NCBI GenBank assembly: GCA_000146045.2
Contig: BK006936.2
Coordinates: 224,001 to 288,000, forward strand
Direction of reading: 5' to 3'
DNA length: 64,000 nucleotides
Origin: TPA_inf: Saccharomyces
Lineage: Eukaryota
Below the pieces are notes generated by a model. It was not told the origin of the DNA and ran no database searches. It was given only the letters and a program-made list of their open reading frames with translations. Shown piece after piece: positions 3,075-42,724 of this stretch (position 1 is its first letter; every line of letters starts with the position of its first letter). A program made the translations under genes and the position numbers.

Positions 3075-3156
3075 GGCAACTTGGCCGAGTGGTTAAGGCG
3101 AAAGATTAGAAATCTTTTGGGCTTTGCCCGCGCAGGTTCGAGTCCTGCAGTTGTCG
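3075..3156 (+). tRNA. tS(AGA): tRNA-Ser (anticodon AGA), 82 nt with long variable arm
   Basis: GGCAACTTGGCCGAGTGGTTAAGGCG A-box region; anticodon stem AAAGA/TCTTT with loop TTAGAAA (AGA); B-box GGTTCGAGTCC; T-run terminator TTATTTTTT directly downstream. Confidence 0.9.
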
Positions 3157-11393: not shown

Positions 11394-11792
11394 TTACAGT
11401 TCTTGAGAAGCTTTGGCAGTCTTGGCAGACTTCTTTGGCAACAAGTTTTGGTGAATGTTTGGCAAAACACCACCTTGGGCGATGGTAACATTACCCAATA
11501 GCTTGTTCAATTCATCATCATTTCTGATGGCCAATTGTAAATGTCTTGGAATAATTCTGGTTTTTTTGTTATCTCTAGCAGCATTACCAGCCAATTCTAA
11601 AATTTCAGCAGCCAAATATTCTAAGACAGCAGTTAGATAGACTGGAGCACCAGAACCAATTCTCTGGGCGTAGTTACCTCTTCTTAGCAATCTGTGCACT
11701 CTACCAACTGGGAATGTTAAACCAGCTTTAGCAGATCTAGATTGAGAAGCTTTAGCAGCTGAACCAGCTTTACCACCTTTACCACCGGACAT
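11394..11792 (-). CDS. HTA2: Histone H2A (132 aa)
   Basis: [132 protein letters not shown]; divergently paired with H2B. Confidence 0.97.
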
Positions 11793-12083
11793 TATATATT
11801 AAATTTGCTCTTGTTCTGTACTTTCCTAATTCTTATGTAAAAAGACAAGAATTTATGATACTATTTAATAACAAAAAACTACCTAAGAAAAGCATCATGC
11901 AGTCGAAATTGAAATCGAAAAGTAAAACTTTAACGGAACATGTTTGAAATTCTAAGAAAGCATACATCTTCATCCCTTATATATAGAGTTATGTTTGATA
12001 TTAGTAGTCATGTTGTAATCTCTGGCCTAAGTATACGTAACGAAAATGGTAGCACGTCGCGTTTATGGCCCCCAGGTTAATGT

Positions 12084-12126
12084 GTTCTCTGAAATTCGCA
12101 TCACTTTGAGAAATAATGGGAACACC
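12084..12126. promoter_or_regulatory. Histone UAS-like elements (GCGAAAAANTNNGAAC family) in the HTA2-HTB2 divergent promoter
   Basis: GTTCTCTGAAATTCGC at 12084-12099 (reverse orientation, GCGAA...GAAC ends conserved) and GAGAAATAATGGGAAC at 12111-12126 (14/16). TATATAAG at 12289-12296 is a likely HTB2 TATA. Confidence 0.45.
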
Positions 12127-12491
12127 TTACGCGTGAGCTGTGCCCACCGCTTCGCCTAATAAAGCGGTGTTCTCAAAATTTCTCCCCGTTTTCAGGATCA
12201 CGAGCGCCATCTAGTTCTGGTAAAATCGCGCTTACAAGAACAAAGAAAAGAAACATCGCGTAATGCAACAGTGAGACACTTGCCGTCATATATAAGGTTT
12301 TGGATCAGTAACCGTTATTTGAGCATAACACAGGTTTTTAAATATATTATTATATATCATGGTATATGTGTAAAATTTTTTTGCTGACTGGTTTTGTTTA
12401 TTTATTTAGCTTTTTAAAAATTTTACTTTCTTCTTGTTAATTTTTTCTGATTGCTCTATACTCAAACCAACAACAACTTACTCTACAACTA

Positions 12492-12887
12492 ATGTCCTCT
12501 GCCGCCGAAAAGAAACCAGCTTCCAAAGCTCCAGCTGAAAAGAAGCCAGCTGCCAAGAAAACATCAACCTCCGTCGATGGTAAGAAGAGATCTAAGGTTA
12601 GAAAGGAGACCTATTCCTCTTATATTTACAAAGTTTTGAAGCAAACTCACCCAGACACTGGTATTTCCCAGAAGTCTATGTCTATTTTGAACTCTTTCGT
12701 TAACGATATCTTTGAAAGAATTGCTACTGAAGCTTCTAAATTGGCCGCTTATAACAAGAAATCCACTATTTCTGCTAGAGAAATCCAAACAGCCGTTAGA
12801 TTGATCTTACCTGGTGAATTGGCTAAACATGCCGTCTCCGAAGGTACTAGGGCTGTTACCAAATACTCCTCCTCTACTCAAGCCTAA
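12492..12887 (+). CDS. HTB2: Histone H2B (131 aa)
   Basis: [131 protein letters not shown]. Confidence 0.97.
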
Positions 12888-13152: not shown

Positions 13153-13467
13153 TCATTGAGAAATTTTTTTTAAAACAACATCGATCTTATCTTGAGCAGT
13201 TTGGTGCTTATCAGTTCTAGTCCCAACACGAATATCAGTGTGTACTCTAACATATCCTTTCTCATGACCGTATTCATGGATTTCGCCAATCAAACCCATC
13301 ACATCATCCCAAGGCCCTTCAATTGTTGTTCCTGCACTGTGTAAAGTGCTCTTTAATGGGCTTTCTCTGATTTTTTTTTCAATGAGTGCAACAAAATCAG
13401 AAATACTAGCAGAGTCGGTGCCAATAGGGACCATACACACGTCCGCTAAACAAAAGATCTTGGGCAT
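13153..13467 (-). CDS. ECM15: ECM15 (YBL001C), small conserved DUF77/MTH1187-family protein (104 aa)
   Basis: 104-aa [35 protein letters not shown]..., positioned between HTB2 and the centromere as on chrII. Confidence 0.85.
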
Positions 13468-14206: not shown

Positions 14207-14324
14207 ATCATGTGACTTATTTATTTAATTATTATTAAGTAAAAAAGATTTTCTATTTAAATTTATTAATTAATTTTTTTTCTTAAATAATTATTTTATG
14301 TTTTTGTTTTCCGAAAAAGAAAAA
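14207..14324 (+). other. CEN2: Point centromere (CEN2-like): CDEI 14207-14216, CDEII 14217-14298 (82 bp, >90% A+T), CDEIII 14299-14324
   Basis: CDEI core CATGTGAC, which is GTCACATG on the other strand and matches RTCACRTG. Then 82 bp of almost pure A/T. Then TGTTTTTGTTTTCCGAAAAAGAAAAA, matching the CDEIII consensus TGTxTxTGxxTTCCGAAxxxxAAAA with the central CCG at 14311-14313. Confidence 0.85.
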
Positions 14325-14940: not shown

Positions 14941-17283
14941 TTATAGGTAATACAATTTTTTCTCAGAGGGTTTCAAACTATTGAAAAATGGCAATGGTGG
15001 ACTACAAGCAGCGAGAGCCCTTCTTGCATGATTATTCATATATTTCAATCCGAGCAAATAACTTGTGTTCACCCAACCAAAGCCTTCTGTAGCGACGCCC
15101 TTAAAATCAGCACCTTGATTACCATATTCCGCATCAACGCGATGCGGATCAGTCCCTCTTGTCACATCATATTTTTCTACCACCATTCCGTTATAATCAA
15201 CAAATGATTTTGTAATCATGTACAGCCACCTATAAGCCAATCTTGTAGCTACTTGTTGATAACCATATGCAGATAAACCTTTCCAGGCTAATATTTGGTG
15301 CGGCGCCCAACCAAAAGGATAATCCCATTGCCTGATCGGTCTATCAATAGAAATAGGACCTCTTGATTTTTCTGTGCATGCAACTAGTCCGCCGAGCATT
15401 TCTAACTGAGGAAGAGCTTTTTCTACTGTGATTTTTGCTTGCTCTTCAGTTGCAAGACCAGCCCACAAACTCCAAAAAGTCGTTGCAGACTCATAAGACG
15501 TTCTGCATTTCAGTTTCGTGTTATAATAGAAGAAAAACCCTGAATCTTCGTCCCACATATACTTATTAATCCTTGTTTTCCTCAGTTCAGCTAGCTCCTC
15601 CCAGTGTTCAGAATCGGTTACCGTTCCATCATTCTCATCTTTATATTCATTACCAAAATACTCCTTAATGACGAAAGCAATATCTTTCTCATATTTATAG
15701 AGCAAGGAGTTTAGATCAATTGTCGCTAAATATGCACATACACCTTCAAACCTATAAGTCGTGTCATGTCCTGACTCTCTCACGGCACGATCATGTAAAA
15801 AAAATGCATCCAGTTTGGGTTCTTTAATCATGCCTTCGTTATAAAGGTACCTAAGCTTTTCCAGAGTAACATTGTACTTTTCAGCATACGGTAATAATAT
15901 AGTATCAAAATGATCTGGTTCAGTTTCCGGAGGGATACCAATACCATCAGAATGATAACAAGACAGCCCTGTCAGAGAATCTAACCTAGGGCTCGACATC
16001 CACACCTCTTTATATTCTTTAATAGCAGCTCTGAACGCGCGTTTTAACAACTGAATAGCGTTTGGATTATTCTTACCTCCTATCTTTTCAAATACGAGCA
16101 GAGCCATATCGGTTAGGAATGGTGGCTGAGATCTGCAAAGATAATAACTCCTATTAGCATTCAAAATTTTACTATAGTGATCAATTTCGAATATAAAATG
16201 CTCCACCATACCTCTTGCAACATCAACCTTATTACTTTCTATGAGTCCCAGTGCCATTAAATATGAATCCCAGCCATACAATTCATTGAATCTACCGCCA
16301 GGTACCGCATAAGGATAACCAACTAGGGACCTTTCACCAGTAGATGGATTAACGTGTTCTTCCATAGCCAGGGCTAACAAACCCGGTGTATCATTTAATG
16401 ATTTAACATACTCTGCTGTAATATCTTTTGGTAAGTACTCCACTTCAAGTTTTAAGGACGGGTTCATTTGAGATGCCTGAATGTAAAATTCGTACTGCTC
16501 TGGGCAGTTATATGGAACATAAATTCTTGGATTTTTAGCGCCTGGCGTATCTATTTTTGAGTCTCTAGCAATTTCTGCAATATTATAAAGATCAACTCTT
16601 CTCGTTAAACTCGTCCAAAATTGAGTCGTTATCAATCTTGATAATCTATCAACAGGGTTTTCATTTATACGCGCCTCATCCAAAAATATTTGGTGTCGTC
16701 CGAAACTTTTTGCAATGGTTAGTTCCTGCAACAAGTTAGAAAGCATATATGTTCCCCTAACATTTACATGTTTGAAACCGTTGGAATTGGCCGTCCCGAC
16801 TTTAATAACTTTGGGCCCAGTGTCTTCTATGGTAATTTGGTGATTCTTGTCTGTGTCCTCACTAGCGAGCAGCTCATCTAAAGCGAGATCCACATTATCA
16901 ATATAAAATCTACGGTTACCTTGGCTGCTGAGGAAGCTGTCGTCTTCAGAACCCCTCCTTTTCAGGGTATAATCCTTCATTCCGTTTTTGAAGTCAGAAA
17001 CTTTATTGAAAACACTCATAGTTCTGGTTCTATTTAGTCTATGAATTTTTGACTGTTTTCTTGGATCTGTTATTGGTCCATAATAGACCTCTGCGTTGGA
17101 AAACGGGTCAAAATACTCATGCATAGAGGACAACCGCCGGTGATGTCTTCTACCACCTTGTTGCCCCTCTTCTTTCAACGGCCGCTGCTCTGAACCACTT
17201 GAAAGTGGCTTTATGTTATCTTCACCATCATTACCTTCGGATGGAGGATTTATTTCCGTTACTTTTGGTAAAAAATCTACCAT
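14941..17283 (-). CDS. NTH2: Neutral trehalase paralog NTH2 (780 aa), GH37
   Basis: 780-aa ORF with trehalase signature regions (…PGGRFNELYGWDSY…, …QWDYPFGWAPHQ…). Position is centromere-proximal on the right arm. Confidence 0.92.
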   Translation of the reverse strand: MVDFLPKVTEINPPSEGNDGEDNIKPLSSGSEQRPLKEEGQQGGRRHHRRLSSMHEYFDPFSNAEVYYGPITDPRKQSKIHRLNRTRTMSVFNKVSDFKNGMKDYTLKRRGSEDDSFLSSQGNRRFYIDNVDLALDELLASEDTDKNHQITIEDTGPKVIKVGTANSNGFKHVNVRGTYMLSNLLQELTIAKSFGRHQIFLDEARINENPVDRLSRLITTQFWTSLTRRVDLYNIAEIARDSKIDTPGAKNPRIYVPYNCPEQYEFYIQASQMNPSLKLEVEYLPKDITAEYVKSLNDTPGLLALAMEEHVNPSTGERSLVGYPYAVPGGRFNELYGWDSYLMALGLIESNKVDVARGMVEHFIFEIDHYSKILNANRSYYLCRSQPPFLTDMALLVFEKIGGKNNPNAIQLLKRAFRAAIKEYKEVWMSSPRLDSLTGLSCYHSDGIGIPPETEPDHFDTILLPYAEKYNVTLEKLRYLYNEGMIKEPKLDAFFLHDRAVRESGHDTTYRFEGVCAYLATIDLNSLLYKYEKDIAFVIKEYFGNEYKDENDGTVTDSEHWEELAELRKTRINKYMWDEDSGFFFYYNTKLKCRTSYESATTFWSLWAGLATEEQAKITVEKALPQLEMLGGLVACTEKSRGPISIDRPIRQWDYPFGWAPHQILAWKGLSAYGYQQVATRLAYRWLYMITKSFVDYNGMVVEKYDVTRGTDPHRVDAEYGNQGADFKGVATEGFGWVNTSYLLGLKYMNNHARRALAACSPPLPFFNSLKPSEKKLYYL

Positions 17284-17707
17284 TATTTGAGTATATGCAG
17301 GTCTCCTTATATACCAAATGTCTGATCCGAACCTGCGTCAAATATATTTGCAAAGGAAAAATATAAATAAATAAATAAAATTGAGAAATAAAGAATATTA
17401 GTTTTAATGGAAAACAGTTCCTACAAGCGCTATAACATATGAAATATACATTAGTCGAATATTAACTTTGGGAGGTAATTACAATTCCTATCCGCTTTAT
17501 ATAATTTAGTGGAACTGGCACGCCGCTCGGAAAAATTGGACTTCAAATTACCCCGCGCGGAGATTTGCATTATAAACTCTATAAAGATGCGTGAATTTCT
17601 ACTCATTTATTACTAATTATTTGAATGTTCTTTTGCGAACTCATTTATCTTGCTCATTACTCTATAAATATCTATGCCATGTGGTAGGAAAAAAATGCAG
17701 ACCTTTC

Positions 17708-18568
17708 TTAATTCAACTTTTTTTCTTTCAAATCGATGGGGTCCCCATTGGTTTCCTCGTCATAATCACCTTCCTCTAATCTGTACTCTTTGTTTAAAAA
17801 GGATTTGTGAAACGAAAATTTTAATAAAATCCATGCCATCCGTATAGGTCCAAACTCTGGCCATAAACAATCCAGCAATTCGATGCGTACGCCCTTACTC
17901 GATGCCTGCCATATCAAAAAGTCACTTAATCTGGAAACGCCACTTGTCCTAATCAATAAATCTAAAGGGGGTACCCCCGCCGTGTAGAGATGCGATTCTA
18001 ACGTGCTTTCGTCTATAGCGGCGCCCTTCTTATGTTGAACAATTGTTTCTTTCATGGCATGCAAGATTTCTTCCCTGCCTGTATATGGAAAGCAGATATT
18101 TAACGTGGCCCTTTTGTTGTTCTTTGTAGTTTCCACAGCAACCCGAACATCTTCTAATAGAGACTTATCCAACAAAGAGAGATCGCCGATAATTTTAATG
18201 CGTACCCCATACTTACAGGCCAGCTCTCCACGTTCTGTGATTTGTCGTATCCTTTCGCGCGCTAAAGTCATCAGTGATTCAACTTCCCGTGAGCTCCTCT
18301 TGAAATTTTCAATTGAAAAGGCAAACACGGTAGCCGTATCGACTCCTGCTTCATAACACAGTTCTAAGATTCTACTCATACTAACAAATCCTGCCTCGTG
18401 GCCCTCCTTTACGTCCATCTCTTTCTTTCTAGCGAATCTCCTGTTCCCATCCATGATGAACCCAACATGTCTAGGTACACAGTTAGATGCACGCAATGTG
18501 CGCGAAAAGATGTTTTTTGTCCACTTTAACACAAATGAATGACCAGGTATACCACTATCCGTTTCCAT
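17708..18568 (-). CDS. RER2: cis-prenyltransferase (dehydrodolichyl diphosphate synthase) RER2 (286 aa)
   Basis: [15 protein letters not shown]… and C-terminal …[17 protein letters not shown]… UPP-synthase family motifs. Confidence 0.92.
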
Positions 18569-18808
18569 ACCGTCTTTTACCTGTGTTTACCCTATTTTTA
18601 CTGCTTAAGTTCTATTGAAACCTGTCATTATTACGAAAATTTTTTTTTTTTTCATTCTAAGCATTTTGTTGGCATCTTCGGAAAAAGCCCGAGCGAGGGT
18701 AACAGGGTTAGGGGATTAGAAGATTAAAGTAAGACACATTATAATCTATAGAGATTTTCTACAACACAAGAAGTGTGCCATTCAGTCCGAATTGAGTACA
18801 GTGGGACG

Positions 18809-32741: not shown

Positions 32742-33111
32742 TTTGTTGATTGTCATCAGTTTTAGTAAAAAACGAACAAAAACACAATAAAATATAAATC
32801 AATATATTTAGGTTTACTGGGTTCTTTAACAGTTGTATAATAGTTATTTTTTATTACAAAAATATAGGTTTTAATAAAAAAAAATAGGGTTCTATTTGTT
32901 TTACATTTATTGATTTGTTTTTCCTGGCGATACCCTCGAAAAAAGCCAGGCCTTGTAGGAGGCAAGATTTATGGCTTTCCATGTGGTTAAAGAAAAATTG
33001 CAGCAGGAAGATATTCATTCATGAGTCAGTTATATAATCGATATATAGCTACATATTAAACAACTTGAAGCCGCATACGTGGTAGGTGTCTCATTTTCAA
33101 TTCAAAATATT

Positions 33112-35577: not shown

Positions 35578-35909
35578 TGTTGGAATAAAAATCCACTATC
35601 GTCTATCAACTAATAGTTATATTATCAATATATTATCATATACGGTGTTAAGATGATGACATAAGTTATGAGAAGCTGTCATCGAAGTTAGAGGAAGCTG
35701 AAGTGCAAGGATTGATAATGTAATAGGATAATGAAACATATAAAACGGAATGAGGAATAATCGCAATATTAGTATGTAGAAATATAGATTCCATTTTGAG
35801 GATTCCTATATCCTCGAGGAGAACTTCTAGTATATTCTGTATACCTAATATTATAGCCTTTATCAACAATGGAATCCCAACAATTATCTAATTACCCACA
35901 TATATCTCA
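35578..35909 (+). repeat. Ty1 5' LTR (delta), 332 bp; contains the TYA ATG at 35869
   Basis: TGTTGGAATAAAAATCC … AATTACCCACATATATCTCA immediately followed by PBS TGGTAGCGCC. Confidence 0.92.
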
Positions 35910-37191
35910 TGGTAGCGCCTGTGCTTCGGTTACTTCTAAGGAAGTCCACACAAATCAAGATCCGTTAGACGTTTCAGCTTCCAAAATTCAAGAATATGAT
36001 AAGGCTTCCACTAAGGCTAACTCTCAACAGACAACAACACCTGCTTCATCAGCTGTTCCAGAGAACCCCCATCATGCCTCTCCTCAACCTGCTTCAGTAC
36101 CACCTCCACAGAATGGGCCGTACCCACAGCAGTGCATGATGACCCAAAACCAAGCCAATCCATCTGGTTGGTCATTTTACGGACACCCATCTATGATTCC
36201 GTATACACCTTATCAAATGTCGCCTATGTACTTTCCACCTGGGCCACAATCACAGTTTCCGCAGTATCCATCATCAGTTGGAACGCCTCTGAGCACTCCA
36301 TCACCTGAGTCAGGTAATACATTTACTGATTCATCCTCAGCGGACTCTGATATGACATCCACTAAAAAATATGTCAGACCACCACCAATGTTAACCTCAC
36401 CTAATGACTTTCCAAATTGGGTTAAAACATACATCAAATTTTTACAAAACTCGAATCTCGGTGGTATTATTCCGACAGTAAACGGAAAACCCGTACGTCC
36501 GATCACTGATGATGAACTCACCTTCTTGTATAACGCTTTTCAAATATTTGCTCCCTCTCAATTCCTACCTACCTGGGTCAAAGACATCCTATCCGTTGAT
36601 TATACGGATATCATGAAAATTCTTTCCAAAAGTATTGAAAAAATGCAATCTGATACCCAAGAGGCAAACGACATTGTGACCCTGGCAAATTTGCAATATA
36701 ATGGCAGTACACCTGCAGATGCATTTGAAACAAAAGTCACAAACATTATCGACAGACTGAACAATAATGGCATTCATATCAATAACAAGGTCGCATGTCA
36801 ATTAATTATGAGAGGTCTATCTGGCGAATATAAATTTTTACGCTACACACGTCATCGACATCTAAATATGACAGTCGCTGAACTGTTCTTAGATATCCAT
36901 GCTATTTATGAAGAACAACAGGGATCGAGAAACAGCAAACCTAATTACAGGAGAAATCCGAGTGATGAGAAGAATGATTCTCGCAGCTATACGAATACAA
37001 CCAAACCCAAAGTTATAGCTCGGAATCCTCAAAAAACAAATAATTCGAAATCGAAAACAGCCAGGGCTCACAATGTATCCACATCTAATAACTCTCCCAG
37101 CACGGACAACGATTCCATCAGTAAATCAACTACTGAACCGATTCAATTGAACAATAAGCACGACCTTCATCTTAGGCCAGAAACTTACTGA
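35869..37191 (+). CDS. TYA: Ty1 TYA (Gag, capsid protein), 440 aa
   Basis: [39 protein letters not shown]… ends …[10 protein letters not shown]-stop, as in Ty1 Gag. Confidence 0.93.
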
Positions 37192-40100
37192 ATCTACAGT
37201 AAATCATACTAATCATTCTGATGATGAACTCCCTGGACACCTCCTTCTCGATTCAGGAGCATCACGAACCCTTATAAGATCTGCTCATCACATACACTCA
37301 GCATCATCTAATCCTGACATAAACGTAGTTGATGCTCAAAAAAGAAATATACCAATTAACGCTATTGGTGACCTACAATTTCACTTCCAGGACAACACCA
37401 AAACATCATTAAAGGTATTGCACACTCCTAACATAGCCTATGACTTACTCAGTTTGAATGAATTGGCTGCAGTAGATATCACAGCATGCTTTACCAAAAA
37501 CGTCTTAGAACGATCTGACGGCACTGTACTTGCACCTATCGTAAAATATGGAGACTTTTACTGGGTATCTAAAAAGTACTTGCTTCCATCAAATATCTCC
37601 GTACCCACCATCAATAATGTCCATACAAGTGAAAGTACACGCAAATATCCTTATCCTTTCATTCATCGAATGCTTGCGCATGCCAATGCACAGACAATTC
37701 GATACTCACTTAAAAATAACACCATCACGTATTTTAACGAATCAGATGTCGACTGGTCTAGTGCTATTGACTATCAATGTCCTGATTGTTTAATCGGCAA
37801 AAGCACCAAACACAGACATATCAAAGGTTCACGACTAAAATACCAAAATTCATACGAACCCTTTCAATACCTACATACTGACATATTTGGTCCAGTTCAC
37901 AACCTACCAAAAAGTGCACCATCCTATTTCATCTCATTTACTGATGAGACAACAAAATTCCGTTGGGTTTATCCATTACACGACCGTCGCGAGGACTCTA
38001 TCCTCGATGTTTTTACTACGATACTAGCTTTTATTAAAAACCAGTTTCAGGCCAGTGTCTTGGTTATACAAATGGACCGTGGTTCTGAGTATACTAACAG
38101 AACTCTCCATAAATTCCTTGAAAAAAATGGTATAACTCCATGCTATACAACCACAGCGGATTCCCGAGCACATGGAGTCGCTGAACGGCTGAACCGTACC
38201 TTATTAGATGACTGCCGTACTCAACTGCAATGTAGTGGTTTACCGAACCATTTATGGTTCTCTGCAATCGAATTTTCTACTATTGTGAGAAATTCACTAG
38301 CTTCACCTAAAAGCAAAAAATCTGCAAGACAACATGCTGGCTTGGCAGGACTTGATATCAGTACTTTGTTACCTTTCGGTCAACCTGTTATCGTCAATGA
38401 TCACAACCCTAACTCCAAAATACATCCTCGTGGCATCCCAGGCTACGCTCTACATCCGTCTCGAAACTCTTATGGATATATCATCTATCTTCCATCCTTA
38501 AAGAAGACAGTAGATACAACTAACTATGTTATTCTTCAGGGCAAGGACTCCAGATTAGATCAATTCAATTACGACGCACTCACTTTCGATGAAGACTTAA
38601 ACCGTTTAACTGCTTCATATCAATCGTTCATTGCGTCAAATGAGATCCAACAATCCAATGATCTTAACATAGAATCAGACCATGACTTTCAATCTGATAT
38701 TGAACTATATCCTGAGCAACCGAGAAATGTCCTTTCAAAAGCTGTGAGTCCAACCGATTCCACACCCCCGTCAACTCATACTGAAGATTCGAAACGTGTT
38801 TCTAAAACCAATATTCGCGCACCCAGAGAAGTTGACCCCAACATATCTGAATCTAATATTCTTCCATCTAAGAAGAGATCTAGCACCCCCCAAATTTCCG
38901 ATATCGAGAGTACCGATTCGGGTGGTATGCATAGATTAGATGTTCCTTTACTTGCTCCCATGTCCCAATCTAACACACATGAGTCGTCGTACGCCAGTAA
39001 ATCTAAAGATTTCAGACACTCAGACTCGTACAGTGACAATGAGACTAATCATACAAACGTACCAATATCCAGTACGGGTGGTACCAATAATAAAACTGTT
39101 CCGCAGACAAGCGAACAGGAGACTGAGAAAAGGATTATACACCGCTTCACCTCCGATCGGATACTTCCGTCATCAGAAAGTAATTCACTACACCATGTCG
39201 TTCCTATCAAAACGTCAGATACTTGTTTTAAGGAAAATACAGAGGAATCTATTATCGCTGATCTTCCACTCCCCGATCTGCCTCCAGAACCTCCTACCGA
39301 ATTATCAGACTCTTTTAAAGAACTTCCACCGATCAATTCTCGTCAAACTAATTCCAGTTTGGGTGGTATTGGTGACTCTAATGCCTATACTACTATCAAC
39401 AGTAAGAAAAGATCATTAGAAGATAATGAAACTGAAATTAAGGTATCACGAGACACATGGAATACTAAGAATATGCGTAGTTTAGAACCTCCGAGATCGA
39501 AGAAACGAATTCACCTGATTGCAGCTGTAAAAGCAGTAAAATCAATCAAACCAATACGAACAACCTTACGATACGATGAGGCAATCACCTATAATAAAGA
39601 TATTAAAGAAAAAGAAAAATATATCGAGGCATACCACAAAGAAGTCAATCAACTGTTGAAGATGAAAACTTGGGACACTGACAAATATTATGACAGAAAA
39701 GAAATAGACCCTAAAAGAGTAATAAATTCAATGTTTATCTTCAACAGGAAACGTGACGGTACTCATAAAGCTAGATTTGTTGCAAGAGGTGATATTCAGC
39801 ATCCTGACACTTACGACTCAGGCATGCAATCCAATACCGTACATCACTATGCATTAATGACATCCCTGTCACTTGCATTAGACAATAACTACTATATTAC
39901 ACAATTAGACATATCTTCGGCATATTTGTATGCAGACATCAAAGAAGAATTATACATAAGACCTCCACCACATTTAGGAATGAATGATAAGTTGATACGT
40001 TTGAAGAAATCACTTTATGGATTGAAACAAAGTGGAGCGAACTGGTACGAAACTATCAAATCATACCTGATAAAACAGTGTGGTATGGAAGAAGTTCGTG

Positions 40101-41140
40101 GATGGTCATGCGTATTTAAGAATAGTCAAGTAACAATTTGCTTATTCGTTGATGATATGATATTGTTCAGCAAGGACTTAAATTCGAATAAAAGAATTAT
40201 AGCAAAACTCAAGATGCAATACGATACCAAGATTATAAATCTAGGTGAAAGCGATGATGAAATTCAACACGACATCCTTGGCTTAGAAATCAAATATCAA
40301 AGAGGTAAATACATGAAATTAGGTATGGAAAACTCATTAACTGAGAAAATACCCAAATTAAACGTACCTTTGAATCCAAACGGAAGAAAACTTGGTGCCC
40401 CAGGCCAACCAGGTCTCTATATAAACCAGCAAGAACTAGAGCTAGAAGAAGATGATTACAAAATGAAGGTACATGAAATGCAAAAGCTGATAGGTCTAGC
40501 ATCATATGTTGGATATAAATTTAGATTTGACCTATTATACTACATCAACACACTTGCACAACATATACTATTTCCGTCCAAGCAAGTGTTAGATATGACA
40601 TATGAATTGATACAGTTCATATGGAATACGAGAGATAAGCAATTAATATGGCACAAAAGCAAACCTGTTAAGCCAACAAATAAATTAGTTGTTATAAGCG
40701 ATGCCTCGTATGGTAACCAACCGTATTATAAATCACAAATTGGCAACATATATTTACTTAATGGAAAAGTAATTGGAGGAAAGTCCACCAAGGCTTCATT
40801 AACATGTACTTCAACTACGGAAGCAGAAATACACGCAATAAGTGAATCTGTCCCATTATTAAATAATCTAAGTTACCTGATACAAGAACTCGACAAGAAA
40901 CCAATTACCAAAGGATTACTAACCGACAGTAAATCTACAATCAGTATAATTATATCCAATAATGAAGAGAAATTTAGAAACAGATTTTTTGGTACTAAAG
41001 CAATGAGACTGAGAGATGAAGTATCAGGAAATCATCTGCACGTATGCTATATCGAAACCAAAAAGAATATTGCAGACGTAATGACCAAACCTCTTCCGAT
41101 AAAAACATTCAAACTATTAACAAACAAATGGATTCATTAG
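35869..41140 (+). CDS. TYB: Ty1 TYA-TYB Gag-Pol fusion (protease, integrase, RT, RNase H) produced by +1 ribosomal frameshift at CTTAGGC (37171-37177)
   Basis: Frame 2 is open from the heptamer to 41140; integrase HHCC/DD35E-like residues, [10 protein letters not shown], RNase H present. Frameshift heptamer CUU-AGG-C intact. Confidence 0.9.
37171..37177 (+). promoter_or_regulatory. Ty1 +1 programmed ribosomal frameshift heptamer CTTAGGC
   Basis: Exact CTTAGGC 14 nt upstream of the TYA stop (TGA 37189-37191); the downstream frame continues as TYB. Confidence 0.9.
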
Positions 41141-41162
41141 ATCTATTACATTATGGGTGGTA

Positions 41163-41494
41163 TGTTGGAATAAAAATCCACTATCGTCTATCAACTAATA
41201 GTTATATTATCAATATATTATCATATACGGTGTTAAGATGATGACATAAGTTATGAGAAGCTGTCATCGAAGTTAGAGGAAGCTGAAGTGCAAGGATTGA
41301 TAATGTAATAGGATAATGAAACATATAAAACGGAATGAGGAATAATCGTAATATTAGTATGTAGAAATATAGATTCCATTTGGAGGATTCCTATATCCTC
41401 GAGGAGAACTTCTAGTATATTCTGTATACCTAATATTATAGCCTTTATCAACAATGGAATCCCAACAATTATCTAATTACCCACATATATCTCA
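41163..41494 (+). repeat. Ty1 3' LTR (delta), 332 bp
   Basis: Identical to the 5' LTR except C/T at about 41348 and T/G at about 41383; ends …ATATCTCA then GTAAT. Confidence 0.92.
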
Positions 41495-42256: not shown

Positions 42257-42377
42257 CTAGGAAACCACAATCCAAGATGAGATAAATATAGAGGAAAATA
42301 CAAGTTTGAGTTTAGATCTGAAGTTACCTTAACATTTGTATAAGCAAATTCGCTACGCGACTCTCACATCAAAAACT

Positions 42378-42450
42378 GCTTCTATGGCCAAGTTGGTAAG
42401 GCGCCACACTAGTAATGTGGAGATCATCGGTTCAAATCCGATTGGAAGCA
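42378..42450 (+). tRNA. tT(AGU): tRNA-Thr (anticodon AGU), 73 nt
   Basis: GCTTCTATGGCCAAGTTGGTAAGGCGCCACACTAGTAATGTGGAGATCATCGGTTCAAATCCGATTGGAAGCA; anticodon loop CT-AGT-AA; B-box GGTTCAAATCC; followed by a TTTTTTT terminator. Confidence 0.92.
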
Positions 42451-42724
42451 TTTTTTTGAATACTGAAAAATTAAGCTGATCACCAAACTCATGTAATATA
42501 TATGCTTGACTATACAAATTACAGGCTTCTTCTCATATTTTTCTGCTCTACGTTAACCTACTTTAAACAGTCCAAAAGGCTTATGTTGTCCACATGAAAT
42601 GCCTAAAACAGATGGCCAATATTTAATTTTTTTCCTTACTACATTTAAATCTGTATACTACCTAAATATCCTCTTTCGCTACTGTGGGAGAAGAAGAAGA
42701 ATAACTCTCAGTTTATAATCTGAT

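Follow-up and report, generated by a model that had tools for sequence, protein, structure and literature searches.

A predicted point centromere between ECM15 and NTH2 is almost certainly CEN2 of Saccharomyces cerevisiae and carries a flipped CDEI core

The 118-bp element at positions 14207–14324 of the analyzed DNA (a 64-kb stretch, hereafter the window) is almost certainly CEN2, the point centromere that has been defined genetically on chromosome II of Saccharomyces cerevisiae, as judged from its sequence and its neighboring genes. The element consists of ATCATGTGAC, an 82-bp tract of 95% A+T, and TGTTTTTGTTTTCCGAAAAAGAAAAA. A function as CEN2 is supported here by the literature and by conservation, and none of the results spoke against this identification. 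A point centromere composed of CDEI, an A+T-rich CDEII, and CDEIII had been proposed in a first-pass annotation of the sequence, and all three elements are present where it had placed them, in the correct order and spacing. The features of the locus are listed below; ECM15 and NTH2 are given as context and lie outside the centromere.

11394–11792, minus strand: histone H2A
12492–12887, plus strand: histone H2B
13153–13467, minus strand: ECM15 (YBL001C), left flank, 104-aa Thiamine_BP-family protein; exact match to NP_009554.1
14207–14214, plus strand: CDEI (predicted Cbf1 binding site), ATCATGTG in the CDEI-to-CDEIII direction; standard 8-bp register
14215–14298, plus strand: CDEII, 84 bp, 94.0% A+T; site of the window's most A+T-rich 84-mer
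14299–14324, plus strand: CDEIII (predicted CBF3 binding site), TGTTTTTGTTTTCCGAAAAAGAAAAA; unique zero-mismatch consensus match
14941–17283, minus strand: NTH2 (YBR001C), right flank, 780-aa neutral trehalase; exact match to NP_009555.1
17708–18568, minus strand: cis-prenyltransferase

The two flanking proteins, of 104 and 780 residues, are identical to Ecm15p and Nth2p of strain S288C. The entire ECM15–NTH2 spacer is 100% identical to one S. cerevisiae assembly at NCBI (L014) and 96.9–99.1% identical to nine others, and the 118-bp element is the same in L012 and L014. The exact protein matches together with the spacer identity point to S. cerevisiae CEN2, which sits between YBL001C/ECM15 and YBR001C/NTH2 at about 238.2 kb on S288C chromosome II. 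In the systematic nomenclature, the number 001 is given to the gene closest to the centromere on its arm, which fits YBL001C and YBR001C flanking CEN2. A true centromere is recoverable from raw sequence, and the window represents pericentromeric DNA of S. cerevisiae chromosome II.

Several other features of this region were recorded. The divergent H2A/H2B gene pair (11394–12887) lies 1.3 kb to the left of the centromere, just past ECM15. Two Ty1-like retrotransposon copies are present, at 1–2920 and 35578–41462. The left copy runs off the window edge and has an LTR copy at 2621–2920, and the second is full length, bounded by 99–100% identical LTR copies at 35578–35877 and 41163–41462. The Ty1-like copies are adjoined by tRNA genes, tRNA-Ser(AGA) at 3075–3156 and tRNA-Thr(AGT) at 42377–42451.

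The internal boundaries of the element vary with the register adopted for CDEI. In the standard 8-bp register, the element comprises 8 bp of CDEI, 84 bp of CDEII, and 25–26 bp of CDEIII, the usual definition of CDEIII being 25 bp, ending at 14323, and the longer one 26 bp, ending at 14324. The resulting total of 117–118 bp, like the order of the parts, is that of a Saccharomyces point centromere (~111–120 bp), and 14 of the 16 S. cerevisiae centromeres measure 117–119 bp (PMC10381965). The length and composition of CDEII (84 bp, 94.0% A+T) are within those expected (~78–86 bp, more than ~86–90% A+T). CDEIII agrees without a mismatch with the 25–26-bp CBF3 site TGTTTWTGNTTTCCGAAANNNAAAA, whose invariant and essential CCG is found at 14311–14313. 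When CDEI is counted as 10 bp, CDEII shrinks to 14217–14298, with 82 bp and 95.1% A+T. The first-pass annotation had described an 82-bp CDEII of about 93% A+T. The length holds in the 10-bp register but not in the standard one, and the composition is higher in both. The figure of 82 bp is explained by the reference annotation of CEN2, which is 117 bp long and partitioned as 10 + 82 + 25. Its 118-bp span likewise stands, but the parts that it assigned (8 + 82 + 26) add up to 116 bp; the 2 bp missing from the sum are the AT at 14207–14208, with which the canonical 8-bp CDEI ATCATGTG begins. The spacings of 740 to the ECM15 ATG (13467) and 617 to the NTH2 stop (14941) are right as coordinate differences, and the sequence in between measures 739 and 616 bp, respectively.

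The window was searched on both strands with the CDEIII consensus TGTTTWTGNTTTCCGAAANNNAAAA, and up to three mismatches were allowed. The only match was the one described above, with no mismatch, whereas 0.03 matches were expected from dinucleotide shuffles. The most A+T-rich 84-mer of the window, 14222–14305, has 5 G/C bases versus 12 in the runner-up. The E-box RTCAYRTG is not enriched, with 16 sites in the window versus 15.8 expected. The significance of the element resides only in the combination of its parts and their exact spacing. Runs of at least four A/T bases in CDEII were not above those of composition-matched shuffles (0.26 versus 0.27, P = 0.55), so this published general property of CDEII is not demonstrable for the CEN2 copy alone.

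With E-boxes occurring at the chance frequency and yeast intergenic DNA being generally A+T-rich, the element might be read as a chance Cbf1 promoter E-box next to an A+T-rich intergenic tract, or as a nonfunctional centromere-like region of the type reported by Lefrancois et al. (2013). The likelihood of this reading is negligible. No second 25-bp CDEIII with zero mismatches occurs in the window, the parts are exactly spaced, their A+T content is extreme, the tripartite layout is maintained in seven species despite complete turnover of CDEII, and the locus and CEN2 of S288C are identical. On the strength of the unique CDEIII, the conservation pattern, and the identity with the reference CEN2, it was excluded for practical purposes.

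To analyze the conservation pattern, members of the Ecm15p cluster were used as anchors, and the orthologous loci were retrieved from six sister species, namely S. paradoxus, S. mikatae, S. kudriavzevii (two strains), S. uvarum, S. eubayanus, and S. arboricola. A strict regular expression derived from the CDEI and CDEIII consensus of S. cerevisiae gave no match in these loci because the CDEIII flanks of the orthologues drift, and the orthologous elements were located by the TCCGAA anchor and the upstream A+T content. In all six sister species, the ECM15–NTH2 spacer contains an element oriented as in the window, with an E-box (GTCACATG, ATCACATG, or CTCACGTG), a CDEII of 84–87 bp and 87–91% A+T, and TCCGAA as the core of CDEIII. 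The element is thus found between ECM15 and NTH2 in seven Saccharomyces species. In the alignment of eight sequences from the seven species, TCA..TG and G..TTT....TCCGAA are invariant, and hardly any column of CDEII is conserved. In the comparison of S. cerevisiae with S. paradoxus, identity is 80% for CDEIII, 58–69% for the flanking spacer, and 51% for CDEII, the last to be compared with 41 ± 5% for shuffles of the same composition.

A similar contrast between the parts is seen within S. cerevisiae. Among 11 sequences (the window and ten strains), nearly all of the variation falls in CDEII. Of the 82 CDEII sites, 13 are variable (16%; overall range for CDEII, 12–16%), and 4.5–6.6% of the sites (about 4–7%) are variable in the flanking spacer. 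Ten of the 11 sequences share the same CDEI and CDEIII, and one divergent strain differs. For yeast centromeres in general, the end-boxes and the length and composition of CDEII are constrained, whereas the turnover of the CDEII sequence is very fast (Bensasson 2011; PMC3155921), and the variation at CEN2 agrees with this pattern.

Two anomalies were noticed among the sequences retrieved. A 1739-bp contig from a "synthetic metagenome" (L004; ENA ERZ922845 contig k127_83965) contains a 434-bp segment that is 100% identical to S. mikatae ECM15, located between two ~87% matches to the prenyltransferase gene region (window 17548–18807). NTH2 and the centromere are absent from this contig, and on this ground it is probably an assembly chimera. 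The search for NTH2 homologues gave no orthologues from Saccharomyces sensu stricto among its matches, and the 90%-identity cluster containing Nth2p is represented by the unrelated Sla1p (1244 aa). This representative is apparently an artifact of database clustering, and it is probably the reason why the sensu stricto orthologues are absent.

The sister species also bear on whether the element might be a replication origin (ARS) instead of, or besides, a centromere. An exact match to the 11-bp ARS consensus sequence (ACS; WTTTAYRTTTW), TTTTATGTTTT, lies at 14294–14304 on the plus strand, across the CDEII/CDEIII junction, in a region that is very A+T-rich. The match occurs in all examined S. 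cerevisiae sequences, and the window has eight ACS matches, compared with 3.6 expected. Every origin needs an 11-bp ACS match, but such a match by itself is far from enough; B elements, conservation, and binding of ORC also characterize an ARS. The match at 14294–14304 is composed of the end of CDEII (TTTTA) and the start of CDEIII (TGTTTT), and CBF3 bound to CDEIII would overlap it. At the aligned position, it is missing in S. paradoxus, S. mikatae, S. kudriavzevii, and S. arboricola, in which the centromere elements are conserved. An ARS as the primary explanation was rejected because the match is not conserved in these four species, and an origin in either form appears very unlikely here. 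The ACS match is better regarded as a probable by-product of the centromere sequence. As a separate observation, the runner-up among the A+T-rich 84-mers (32833–32916, 12 G/C bases) is flanked by exact ACS matches at 32789–32799 (minus strand) and 32899–32909 (plus strand), and 32789–32916 may be a replication origin.

A feature that distinguishes CEN2 of S. cerevisiae from its orthologues is the orientation of the CDEI core. In all 11 sequences of S. cerevisiae, the core reads TCATGTGA toward CDEII, versus TCACRTGA in all six sister species. The central CA of CDEI has become TG in S. cerevisiae, and the sister species read xTCACRTG toward CDEII. Even the most divergent strain, L019, carries GTCATGTGAT, flip included, and the presence of the flip in all 11 sequences indicates that it is derived in S. 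cerevisiae. In the window, the core TCATGTGA occupies 14208–14215 and is flanked by a palindrome. The plus-strand ATCATGTG (14207–14214) departs from RTCACRTG at one position, position 5, and 14209–14216 on this strand reads CATGTGAC. The first-pass annotation had remarked that RTCACRTG is matched on the reverse strand only, and this was confirmed: GTCACATG is found on the minus strand at 14209–14216. As the flanking T...A palindrome is retained, a homodimeric reader still finds a perfect GTCACATG on the minus strand. Cbf1 reads the near-palindromic CDEI as a homodimer (PMC10381965). The site is accordingly valid on both strands, and the 8-bp Cbf1 E-box RTCACRTG characteristic of CDEI is present.

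The flip could record a micro-inversion because exact reverse complementation of the S. paradoxus 10-mer GTCACATGAT yields the common S. cerevisiae 10-mer ATCATGTGAC. Two transitions via the CACGTG palindrome would also lead from one core to the other and would keep a Cbf1 site at each step. The Cbf1 dimer is placed asymmetrically against CCAN in the structure determined by cryo-EM (PMC10381965), so a swap of the CAC and CAT half-sites relative to CDEII could alter the engagement of Cbf1 or CCAN. That the flip is not neutral, through altered Cbf1/CCAN engagement at CEN2 alone, is unlikely. The CDEI variant of CEN2 presumably appears already in the classical centromere compilations, and Cbf1 binding constants were reportedly measured for all 16 CENs by Wieland et al. 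in 2001. A full-text literature search for the string ATCATGTG returned only unrelated primer matches. An oligonucleotide with the same 14-mer, ATCATGTGACTTAT, served as a Cbf1p site (Roy et al. 2016; PMC5052057). Only a functional consequence of the flip would be new, and the flip offers a possible natural test of the orientation of the Cbf1 half-sites in kinetochore geometry.

Here, we outline how the CEN2 copy would function, on the basis of published work on S. cerevisiae centromeres. A Cbf1 bHLH-zipper homodimer would bind the near-palindromic E-box of CDEI. In the known structure, the dimer reads CDEI via His227, Glu231, and Arg235 of both basic helices, like Myc-Max on CACGTG (PMC10381965). 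The CBF3 complex (Ndc10, Cep3, Ctf13, and Skp1) would occupy CDEIII, where the Gal4-type zinc cluster of Cep3 would read the CCG; this essential triplet is known to be read by one of the Cep3 subunits of CBF3 through its Gal4-type domain (PMC10381965). On CDEII, with its 84 bp and 94% A+T, CBF3 together with the chaperone Scm3 would direct the deposition of a single Cse4 (CENP-A) nucleosome. Wrapping of a single Cse4 nucleosome by CDEII, with two CCAN protomers around the particle, has been described (PMC10381965). Finally, two CCAN modules and the outer kinetochore would assemble on the Cse4 particle, and one microtubule would be captured.

Published measurements cover this very centromere. 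ChIP-seq signals of Cse4, Mif2, Ndc10, and Ndc80 are very strong at centromeres and were plotted specifically for CEN2 (PMC3547844), so the ChIP check that the first-pass annotation had called for is already in print. A centromere-specific pattern was found at all 16 centromeres by H4S47C cleavage mapping (PMC3983907). Saccharomyces point centromeres characteristically stabilize ARS plasmids through mitosis and meiosis and lose their function when the CCG is mutated. The design of an ARS-plasmid stability assay has been described for CEN3 (PMC10381965). Annotation, ChIP mapping, and comparative studies of CEN2 go back decades, and its identification here adds nothing to centromere biology.

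Beyond Saccharomyces, the vicinity of the ECM15 orthologue was inspected for CDE-like elements, defined as CCGAA preceded first by an E-box-like motif and then by a long tract with an A+T content of at least 85%; the parses of the distant elements are rough. Such elements adjoin the ECM15 orthologue in Lachancea thermotolerans, Tetrapisispora phaffii, and Zygosaccharomyces parabailii, and no CDE-like element was found beside it in Kluyveromyces lactis. The ancestral centromere Anc_CEN3 gave rise to S. cerevisiae CEN2 and CEN4, L. thermotolerans CEN7, and Z. rouxii CEN1 and was lost in K. lactis (Gordon, Byrne, and Wolfe 2011, Table 1; PMC3141009). The distribution of the ECM15-adjacent elements, as parsed from sequence, appears to agree with that of Anc_CEN3 (PMC3141009). 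Every Saccharomyces locus that was fetched retains the gene order H2A–H2B–ECM15, as do those of Lachancea, Zygosaccharomyces, and Kluyveromyces.

Compared with known systems, the element in the window occupies the same locus as S. cerevisiae CEN2, and no difference was found. The structurally characterized CEN3 of S. cerevisiae, with CDEI GTCACATG, has the same tripartite layout, length of ~117–118 bp, CCG read by Cep3, and E-box for the Cbf1 dimer (PMC10381965). CEN2 differs from CEN3 in the flipped central dinucleotide of the E-box, which reads TCATGTGA rather than TCACATGA toward CDEII, with the CAC and CAT half-sites swapped. The orthologous CEN2 of the six sister species shares with S. 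cerevisiae the syntenic spacer, the orientation, the length and composition of CDEII, TCA..TG, and TCCGAA, whereas its CDEII is unalignable with that of S. cerevisiae, the CDEIII flanks drift (e.g., GCTCCGAA in S. mikatae), and CDEI has the canonical orientation in every sister species. The centromeres derived from Anc_CEN3 (L. thermotolerans CEN7 and those of Zygosaccharomyces and Tetrapisispora) resemble CEN2 in having CCGAA, an A+T tract, and an E-box-like motif by ECM15, but their CDEII is longer (about 105–150 bp by a rough parse) and their CDEI variants differ. Unlike S. cerevisiae, K. lactis has no centromere at the ECM15 site. In T. phaffii, the local gene order is rearranged relative to the S. 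cerevisiae CEN2 locus, and the CDE-like element still adjoins ECM15.
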